DNA of 12,048 nucleotides from a virus (taxonomy: Duplodnaviria; Heunggongvirae; Uroviricota; Caudoviricetes): IMG/VR virus record IMGVR_UViG_2534682338_000009, positions 1 through 12,048 of that record. One strand, written 5' to 3'. Each line of letters starts with the position of its first letter. The stretch's first letter is position 1. The notes under the pieces were generated by a model. It did not search any database and had not been told where the DNA came from. It saw nothing but the letters and a program-made list of their open reading frames with translations. Below, piece by piece: positions 1 to 1,554 of this stretch. The translations under genes and the position numbers were made by a program.

Positions 1-117
1 GAGAGCGGCTTCAACGCTGAGTTTTTTCAGCAGCCGATCAAACTGACTGAGGTCTTCAGGGGTTTTGAGGTTTTTGGCCAGTTCGTTAGCCAGAGCCTGT
101 AACTGTTTTTCGTCCAT
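1..117 (-). CDS. IS256-family (Mutator-type) transposase, N-terminal 39 codons only (5' partial in window)
   Basis: Translation of the reverse complement of 1-117 gives MDEKQLQALANELAKNLKTPEDLSQFDRLLKKLSVEAAL, which I recognise from memory as the conserved N-terminal segment of IS256-family transposases. An AAGG Shine-Dalgarno-like motif lies about 10 nt upstream of the ATG. The ORF is open to the window edge. Confidence 0.7.
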   Translation of the reverse strand, partial: MDEKQLQALANELAKNLKTPEDLSQFDRLLKKLSVEAAL

Positions 118-165
118 AAATTAACCTTCATTTGATGCTGGATTGAACATATCAAAATCAGGCAA
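1..165 (-). mobile_element. IS256-family insertion sequence, partial (continues beyond window start); right boundary approximate
   Basis: Minus-strand ORF with ATG at 115-117 encodes a characteristic IS256/Mutator-family transposase N-terminus. This stretch is visibly GC-richer than the adjacent phage genes. Terminal inverted repeat not identified by eye, so the true end lies somewhere around 120-200. Confidence 0.55.
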
Positions 166-1554
166 TTACACAAATCTATGTACAGGCTCTAGTTCATCGG
201 TAACATAACGTTCGGTAGCTGCGTTGCTTAGTAGCATTGCTTTAGTGATTTTAATACCCGCAGCATACATGCGAGGCTTAAGTGTAATTTTATCGAAAGT
301 TTCGAAACCGTCGGTAACTGCTTCATCTTCGTTGTAGAATTTAGCTGCTGGAGTCATACCTTTTGCACGTGGGATAGAGAAGTTACCACGGCCTGCAAGC
401 CCACCAAATACGGTTACTGGTAGTTGACCTAGTACAGTAGCTGCGAGTAGTTGACGAATATAGCTGTCTGCTAGTTCTTCTTTTACTAGACCTGCGGCGG
501 TTACAGTAGAAGTAGTATCGTCAGTAGAACGTACCATAGCGTTTAGGTCTGCGTTATAACCACGTGCACCTTTTTCGAAGGATTCTAGATCATGTGCTTC
601 ACCTTTTAGACTGCGTAGACCTTCGTTAATTAGAGATTTCTTTTCCATTTTTTTGATATCCTTATCAATTGATTTATTATCTGTATTTAGTGAGCGTTTA
701 AAGTCTTCAACGCTTACACCGTTTTTAATTGCTTCTTCTGTACTAACACCTAGTACCGAAGAAATAGATCGAAGTTCGCGAATACGATTTGCTTCTACTT
801 CTTTATTTATGCTTTCCTGAATATCAGTTACGGCAATAGAACGTTCCTCTACTAATTCAGGTTGTACTTCCTGTACTTCCTCAATTACTTCTGGTTCTTC
901 TACTACTTCTACTGATTCTTCTTGAACTACTTCTTCTTCTTCGATTACTTCGGCTTGTACTTCTTCTTCCTGTACTTCCTTAATAACTTCAACTTCCTGT
1001 ACTAGTTCTTCTTTTTGTTCTTGTTCCATTTCGGGTAGATCCTCTAGTGTGATTTCTTCATTACTATTTAGTGATCTTCCGATGCCGACGGTGTTGTCCG
1101 CTGGCTGCGAAACACTGGATACTTCGTATGGTTGCCATTTAGAAACAATTAGATTATTACCATCTAGGTAGTAATCTAAGATGTTATAACCTACGGACAC
1201 TTTAGGGCGAATACCTTCTAAGATCATACCGAAGATAGTATTTGCTGTTCCAAGTGCACTAAAACGTACAGTAGCACGACATACTTTATCCATATCTACG
1301 CGGGCATTCTCAACTATACCGACCTGACGCATTGCATCATGTTCTACTAGTACAGGTGCACCGTCATTAAGACGGCTTAAGTCTACGTTTTCAGGACTGC
1401 ATAAAAGGATCTCATTATAGAGAGTCCCTTTAATATCGCGTACTACTGGAATTTCGCTTGCAAATGAGAGTTCTACAGTTCTATCAGCTTCATCAATGGC
1501 ATTATTGATTTGTGTTAGATTGATCGCCCTCGTCTGGTTCTTGTTCAATTCCAT
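166..1554 (-). CDS. Phage prohead protease (HK97/S78-like) - acidic scaffold-like linker - capsid-like C-terminal segment; probably 3'-truncated by the IS insertion
   Basis: N-terminal ~170 aa carry prohead-protease-like motifs (PVLVEHD, YEVSSVSQPADN). Residues ~183-255 are a Glu/Val-rich low-complexity acidic repeat typical of scaffold/delta domains. The C-terminal ~100 aa resemble the start of an HK97-fold capsid protein but are too short for a full capsid domain. The ORF ends about 50 bp from the transposase start. Start at 1554 is preferred over the longest-ORF start at 1602 because of an AAGGAA motif upstream and a smaller overlap with the portal gene. Confidence 0.6.
   Translation of the reverse strand: MELNKNQTRAINLTQINNAIDEADRTVELSFASEIPVVRDIKGTLYNEILLCSPENVDLSRLNDGAPVLVEHDAMRQVGIVENARVDMDKVCRATVRFSALGTANTIFGMILEGIRPKVSVGYNILDYYLDGNNLIVSKWQPYEVSSVSQPADNTVGIGRSLNSNEEITLEDLPEMEQEQKEELVQEVEVIKEVQEEEVQAEVIEEEEVVQEESVEVVEEPEVIEEVQEVQPELVEERSIAVTDIQESINKEVEANRIRELRSISSVLGVSTEEAIKNGVSVEDFKRSLNTDNKSIDKDIKKMEKKSLINEGLRSLKGEAHDLESFEKGARGYNADLNAMVRSTDDTTSTVTAAGLVKEELADSYIRQLLAATVLGQLPVTVFGGLAGRGNFSIPRAKGMTPAAKFYNEDEAVTDGFETFDKITLKPRMYAAGIKITKAMLLSNAATERYVTDELEPVHRFV

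Follow-up and report, generated by a model that had tools for sequence, protein, structure and literature searches.

Why does the head gene of this prophage stop after only the first third of its capsid domain? The question is raised by a stretch of 12,048 nucleotides (nt), hereafter the window (IMG/VR record IMGVR_UViG_2534682338_000009, positions 1 to 12,048). Here a minus-strand open reading frame (ORF) that resembles a fusion of prohead protease, scaffold and major capsid protein runs into a TAA codon at 166-168, next to the start of a transposase gene at the window edge. A preliminary description, made from the letters of the window, proposed that an IS256-family insertion sequence (IS) truncates the head gene. 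Our results agree with that proposal: the terminus of an IS1414 element lies at position 189, and the head gene resumes beyond an assembly gap that covers the rest of the IS. We consider it very likely that a single IS1414 insertion, recent and strain-specific, split the fused head gene of an otherwise complete prophage.

The IS1414 end and its junction with the head gene

Window positions 1-189 are the left end of IS1414, an IS256-family element. When window 1-200 was compared by megablast with complete Escherichia coli genomes, matches were found in 3975 of 5426; the best were 98-99% identical over positions 1-196/197, and the matched copies carry the PGAP label 'IS256-like element IS1414 family transposase'. 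Positions 1-189 showed no mismatch to the IS1414 copies at loci L004 and L005 (100% identical) and two mismatches to the copy at L003. We took the boundaries and the 1314-bp length of the element from this last copy (L003 676-1989), which spans GAGCCTGTTTAGTA... to ...ATGTACAGGCTC and is flanked on both sides by the 8-bp direct repeat TATTTCAT. Its ends are identical over the terminal 8 nt and match imperfectly farther inward, and its full-length transposase homologue (709-1917) matches Pfam Transposase_mut (E=8.9e-120).

The readable part of the copy in the window comprises the first 189-191 of 1314 nt. It shares with IS1414 the terminal sequence GAGCCTGT... and the transposase N-terminus, and its target duplication has the same 8-bp length as at L003; no difference was seen within the readable part, and the interior falls in an assembly gap. 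The transposase ORF, with a minus-strand ATG at 117, begins MDEKQLQALANELAKNLKTPEDLSQFDRLLKKLSVEAAL and leaves the window at its edge. The N-terminal peptide is that of the IS1414 transposase, as the preliminary description had supposed for an IS256-type enzyme. However, its reading of the transposase as divergent was mistaken: the transposase and the head gene both lie on the minus strand and are co-directional. The L003 copy also holds an embedded astA/EAST1 ORF, a feature described for IS1414 in PMC12585946, which cites McVeigh et al. (2000). In the copy studied here, this ORF would fall inside the unassembled gap.

The change from IS to phage DNA is abrupt. The IS1414 terminus, ...GTACAGGCTC, lies at window position 189 and phage DNA follows from 190. 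Homology to two related prophages (L001 and L002, 88-90% identical) sets in exactly at 190, and the left inverted repeat GAGCCTGTACATAGATTTGTGTAATTGCC stops where the intact-prophage homology starts, at 189/190; the right repeat of this copy lies within the gap. Because 189 nt are identical to a known IS and the homology breaks sharply at the exact IS terminus, this junction is not due to chance. The G+C content is 50.8% for IS1414 and 36.4% for the prophage part of the window (190-12048), a value that is very AT-rich for an Escherichia host. A promoter and terminator scan of window 1-400 gave nothing above shuffle expectation. Species-representative genomes of GTDB contained no match to the 38-nt sequence on the phage side of the junction.

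The head ORF reads across this boundary. The codons from 189 to 166 (GAG CCT GTA CAT AGA TTT GTG TAA) encode EPVHRFV and a stop, and they are IS inverted-repeat DNA in frame with the phage ORF. The 462-residue product therefore consists of 455 phage-encoded and 7 IS-encoded residues. The preliminary description placed the end of the ORF at 166, which is right for the stop codon; the true junction lies at 189/190, and the last seven codons and the stop come from the IS. Similarly, its spacing of about 50 bp between the stop and the transposase start is close to the 48 nt found, but the IS does not abut the head gene. It lies inside it.

The target duplication and the rest of the gene

The window breaks off within the IS, 2 nt before the end of a contig; the sequence beyond it was obtained from the source scaffold. 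A look-up with the portal protein was used to retrieve this scaffold and its intact relatives; eight loci were returned. In one of them (L008; GCA_000190855.1, scaffold GL871841.1) positions 951-12998 are the exact reverse complement of the whole window. The 5' part of the capsid gene ends there with ...GTTACCG ATGAACTA and is followed directly by GAGCCTGTAC..., the IS, which continues for 191 nt up to the contig end. Positions 13001-14137 are a run of 1137 N, and the next contig opens with ATGAACTA CTACGCCAATG..., the remainder of the capsid gene.

The octamer ATGAACTA (TAGTTCAT on the plus strand of the window) is present at L008 12802-12809 and again at 14138-14145, whereas it occurs once only in the seven intact loci. 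In a BLAST comparison of L008 with these intact loci, the two flanks overlapped by exactly 8 nt of intact sequence, 12802-12809. The repeated ATGAACTA is the expected 8-bp target-site duplication. Thus, the marks of insertion that the preliminary description had suggested looking for are present: an IS end at 189, a target sequence that appears again beyond the gap, and a gene that resumes in frame. The remaining 163 capsid codons continue straight after the second octamer, and in-silico removal of the IS, the gap and one octamer yields an ORF of 618 codons. This restored ORF shows no amino acid difference from the head genes of L006, L007 and L009-L013, and over 1857 nt it differs from them at no position (L007) or at one.

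Over 21.5 kb the source and the seven prophages with an intact gene are 99.7-99.96% identical. The IS is the only substantial difference; other length differences are limited to small indels near a heptamer repeat. Gene callers split the disrupted gene into ORFs of 462 and 110 residues, both with Phage_capsid matches.

We considered whether the interrupted gene could be an assembly artefact, created by a chimeric join where a repeat had ended the contig, with the capsid gene in reality intact. The window edge lies within a multicopy IS, 2 nt short of the end of a contig, which would fit such an artefact, as would the 1137 N in the scaffold and the fact that a second assembly breaks at the same base. 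However, the junction itself is 191 nt away from the contig end and coincides with the true IS1414 terminus, and the next contig opens with the octamer found directly before the IS, as in the IS1414 duplication at L003. A target-site duplication would not arise from a random chimera. Furthermore, the gap length fits one IS, and the same junction is found in GCA_000190855.1, GCA_902876715.1 and the Logan assembly of SRR024144. We regard an artefact as extremely improbable. The shared break, 191 nt into IS1414 in both GCA_000190855.1 and GCA_902876715.1 (at the end of L015), suggests that the strain holds several diverging IS1414 copies or that the two assemblies share a read set.

A more complex insertion could also be imagined, such as a composite transposon, two IS elements, or an IS-mediated inversion or deletion, with the 3' fragment scaffolded next to the 5' fragment only by coincidence. 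The unsequenced interior and right end of the IS leave room for it. Against this, the assembled 191 nt and the 1137 N amount to 1328 nt, near the 1314 nt of one IS1414, identical 8-bp direct repeats stand on both sides of the gap, and the flanks are colinear with the intact prophages, with no bases lost. Such a rearrangement is very unlikely.

How old is the insertion? The exact truncated protein is recorded on three contigs only (GL871841.1, GCA_902876715.1 and the Logan assembly of SRR024144, possibly of the same strain); the identical portal protein, in contrast, has entries in 90 blocks of the assembly collection. Because of this distribution and the near-identity to intact alleles, we place the insertion as recent, strain-specific and later than the acquisition of the prophage. 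The preliminary description had arrived at the same order of events. The difference of 0-1 nt between the disrupted and the intact alleles also shows that IS1414 has recently been active in this strain.

The fused head protein and the prophage around it

The coordinates of the IS1414 end, the head gene and its parts are collected below. The longest version of the truncated head ORF reaches upstream to 1602, and the 3' end of the portal gene overlaps the head-gene start by 53 nt.

Table. Features at the IS1414-prophage junction, in window coordinates
Feature	Position	Strand	Basis or remarks
IS1414 left (transposase-proximal) end	1..189	-	Inverted repeat, 5' leader and first 39 transposase codons
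IS1414 transposase coding sequence, start	1..117	-	ATG at 117; 39 codons inside the window; from translation
IS1414 left terminal inverted repeat	161..189	-	GAGCCTGTACATAGATTTGTGTAATTGCC; from comparison of both IS ends
Target-site copy	190..197		TAGTTCAT on the plus strand, ATGAACTA on the gene strand; second copy at L008 14138-14145
Truncated prohead-protease/scaffold/major-capsid fusion ORF	166..1554	-	462 residues from the annotated start MELNK; called as a 462-residue gene in L008
Retained N-terminal third of the HK97-type capsid domain	190..489	-	Residues 356-455
Acidic repeat-rich linker, presumed scaffold	490..1029	-	Residues ~176-355; from composition and position
Prohead-protease-like N-terminal domain	1030..1554	-	Residues ~1-175; PHROG 4523 (E=1e-36), PHROG 80, NF045541 (E=4.7e-33), TIGR01543, Peptidase_S78
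Portal gene	1502..2998	-	Pfam Phage_portal_2, PHROG 21; directly upstream of the head gene

All close relatives of the head gene encode 618 residues; the truncation does not mark a point where homologues naturally stop. Behind the portal gene, L001, L002, L006 and Vibrio phage VP882 have a single head fusion gene, with head-tail joining or closure genes after it, and these head modules contain no separate protease, scaffold or capsid gene. The preliminary description stated that no separate capsid gene follows the truncated ORF. This is borne out by the relatives, but the 3' part of the same gene does follow, beyond the IS.

The phage part of the window found no nucleotide match (megablast) among 50,697 phage records and only two in the 5426 complete E. 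coli genomes, at 89-90% identity. As there was no phage relative at the nucleotide level, we turned to protein comparison. In VP882 (Hapunavirus), a viable phage and the nearest one sequenced, gp07, annotated 'major head protein', is likewise encoded by one fusion gene, of 632 residues, in which an HK97-type capsid domain follows a protease-like N-terminus and a linker. It aligns end to end with the intact head protein (residues 13-612, 27% identity, E=3e-48), and VP882 has the same gene order of large terminase, head-tail joining, portal and head gene. The fusions of VP882, PHROG 617, PHROG 4523 and NF045541 are only 27-31% identical to this lineage, and the copy in the window differs from them in being cut at residue 455. 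The prophage lineage appears to be undescribed yet widespread, with VP882 as its nearest head module, at 27-31% amino acid identity.

Profile searches support the description of the head protein as a fusion. The intact 618-residue protein matched PHROG 617 'major head protein' over residues 5-614 (profile positions 7-621 of 626, E=1.3e-90). For the ~290 residues at its N-terminus, matches were obtained with NCBIfam NF045541 'prohead protease/major capsid protein fusion' (E=1e-34; 120 bits, far under the model cut-off of 525 bits) and with PHROG 4523 'major head and protease protein' (E=3e-39). In the C-terminal part, Pfam Phage_capsid covered residues 356-615 (profile positions 4-279 of 280, E=3.4e-17), TIGR01554 (HK97 major capsid) gave E=4.6e-15, and a solved capsid protein (PDB 8gta_A) aligned to residues 360-610 (E=1.1e-7). 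In the truncated protein, the Phage_capsid match covers residues 356-456 and profile positions 4-103 of 280. Thus, the capsid-like part of about 100 residues given in the preliminary description proved accurate.

Matches to dedicated protease profiles were weak. PHROG 80 'head maturation protease' gave E=1.3e-5, and both TIGR01543 (E=0.002) and Pfam Peptidase_S78 (E=0.029, in a search opened to E 10) fell below their cut-offs; at default stringency, Pfam found no protease domain in the head protein. The candidate catalytic residues are His72, in an EHD motif, and Ser120, in an SVGY motif, and VP882 gp07 shares both conserved motifs. For the N-terminal 175 residues, an AlphaFold2 model from the single sequence reached a predicted local distance difference test score (pLDDT) of 31 and was discarded. 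Between the protease-like and capsid parts lies an acidic segment. Glu and Asp make up 38% of residues 176-260, and imperfect 21/42-nt tandem repeats at window 865-966 encode an acidic, E/V/Q-rich stretch of the protein. From its position and by analogy with the HK97 delta domain, this linker is presumed to act as a scaffold. HK97 gp4/gp5 share with this protein the HK97-family capsid domain (TIGR01554) and a weak likeness to the HK97-type prohead protease; HK97 encodes its protease and its capsid protein in separate genes, whereas they are fused in this prophage. Taken as a label for the gene, 'protease-scaffold-capsid' is well supported by these matches where the capsid part and the fusion family as a whole are concerned, and only moderately where the protease is. 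In a literature search on fusions of protease and capsid, no paper dealing specifically with this architecture came up.

The locus encodes small and large terminase, head-tail joining protein, portal, head fusion, further connector proteins and a tail tube protein. It also encodes a 1211-residue tail fibre with a Peptidase_S74 domain and a 738-residue protein that may be the tape measure. Judged from these assignments, this is a complete virion module and not the repertoire of a satellite. This bears on the suggestion of the preliminary description that the element is either a defective prophage or a satellite that depends on a helper. For a satellite or naturally capsid-less element, the short capsid ORF would be the native state, and the window taken by itself shows no complete capsid gene. 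However, phage satellites of the phage-inducible chromosomal island (PICI) or P4-like kind are defined by the absence of their own capsid, terminase and tail genes and by reliance on a helper, whereas this locus has terminases, portal, head-tail joining, tail tube and tail fibre genes and the possible tape measure gene. In addition, near-identical elements carry the full 618-residue gene, and the C-terminus of the truncated ORF is encoded by IS DNA. A satellite is scarcely credible here. A defective prophage, the other half of the suggestion, is supported by the truncated capsid gene.

Several other features of the locus were observed. At window 5295-5422 the longest ORFs of the small terminase (5295-5864) and the large terminase (3500-5422) overlap by 128 nt, and the large-terminase starts chosen by gene callers vary among assemblies, giving products of 546 to 637 residues. 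Just upstream of the small terminase gene, on the strand opposite to the late genes, lies a gene for a 606-residue OLD-family nuclease (6315-8135, plus strand; Pfam DUF2813, AAA_15/AAA_21 and an OLD-like TOPRIM; PHROG 4747, E=9e-101). This region is without counterpart in L001 and L002, whose homology to the window stops at ~6006-6039, and from its sequence the gene looks like accessory, defence-type cargo.

Two perfect tandem repeats were also found. At 8262-8326 a heptamer is repeated 9.3 times (TACTCAT on the plus strand, ATGAGTA on the minus strand). The OLD-like gene and a gene for 125 residues converge here, and the repeat lies in the AT-rich gap that separates their 3' ends. Its copy number is 2, 2, 3, 4, 6, 6, 9 and 10 across eight prophages that are otherwise at least 99.7% identical, the pattern of a hypervariable microsatellite, as which we classify the tract from sequence. 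The second, a 14-nt unit GACTTTGGATAATT repeated 2.5 times at 11184-11218, lies between ORFs of 55 (10930-11097) and 158 residues (11572-12048) and could be an operator-like or iteron-like site.

A model for the insertion and its consequences

Based on these results, we propose a model that addresses how the gene was split, what is made from it and what this means for the prophage. We believe that one copy of IS1414 (IS256 family, 1314 bp; Mutator-type DDE transposase, 8-bp target duplications) transposed into codon 455/456 of the 618-codon fused gene for prohead protease, scaffold and HK97-type capsid, and that the target ATGAACTA was doubled in the process. The transposase of the inserted IS is read in the same direction as the late genes of the phage. 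Translation of the head gene would enter the IS inverted repeat, continue for seven codons and stop. The truncated product would retain the protease-like domain, the acidic scaffold segment and ~100 of the ~265 capsid-domain residues, and the 163 residual codons beyond the IS would be untranslated or, at most, a remnant that encodes a fragment.

The second part of our model concerns head assembly. The lost 163 residues, the last quarter of the protein, would comprise most of the HK97 fold; by analogy with HK97 gp5, they presumably include the A-domain and much of the P-domain. A complete HK97 fold is needed for head assembly, and a subunit without the missing part would not be able to form capsomers. 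On this analogy, the prophage would not assemble heads and hence would not produce infectious particles. The neck and tail genes downstream of the insertion would probably be under-expressed as well, through polarity.

Some points count against our model or limit it. The interior and right end of the IS, up to the right IS-phage junction, are a run of N. The gap could hold extra cargo or a second IS, though its size fits one copy, and the transposase of this IS copy is readable over 39 codons only. The three contigs that carry the junction may stem from one strain or one read set, which limits the independent confirmation that they provide. A second, related prophage, if the same genome holds one, could make up for the head defect in trans.

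Prophages disrupted by IS elements, cryptic or defective, are known from E. coli, for example with an IS in structural genes of lambdoid prophages. There, as in our model, a gene that the virion cannot do without is inactivated by a mobile element, while the remaining prophage stays where it was. The present case differs in that the event is very recent (0-1 nt divergence) and is accompanied by no other lesions in the ~20 kb flank; this prophage is disabled at one point and not decayed.

It is also conceivable that the split gene is more than dead. The 462-residue product might be a dominant-negative poison of assembly, or the insertion might be a reversible switch. We raise these ideas because the restored gene would match functional alleles exactly and no damage is apparent elsewhere in the prophage, but we think it extremely unlikely that either applies. 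If they were true, the 462-residue product would shield the lysogen from superinfection by related phages with the same fused head protein, and rare precise excision of IS1414 together with one target copy would restore a perfectly intact prophage. For IS256, excision of this precise kind from ica genes of staphylococci has been reported.

In sum, the split head gene is an ordinary, already well-understood event: an abundant IS of E. coli knocks out an essential structural gene of a prophage. Nothing here challenges current understanding. For annotation, the 462-residue 'capsid' ORF and the 110-residue ORF beyond the IS are to be treated as the halves of one pseudogene. Additionally, despite a gene content that looks complete, this strain's prophage should be recorded as defective in particle formation. 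Last, the locus is a naturally occurring knockout of a gene that fuses protease, scaffold and capsid, from a phage lineage without a close sequenced phage relative.

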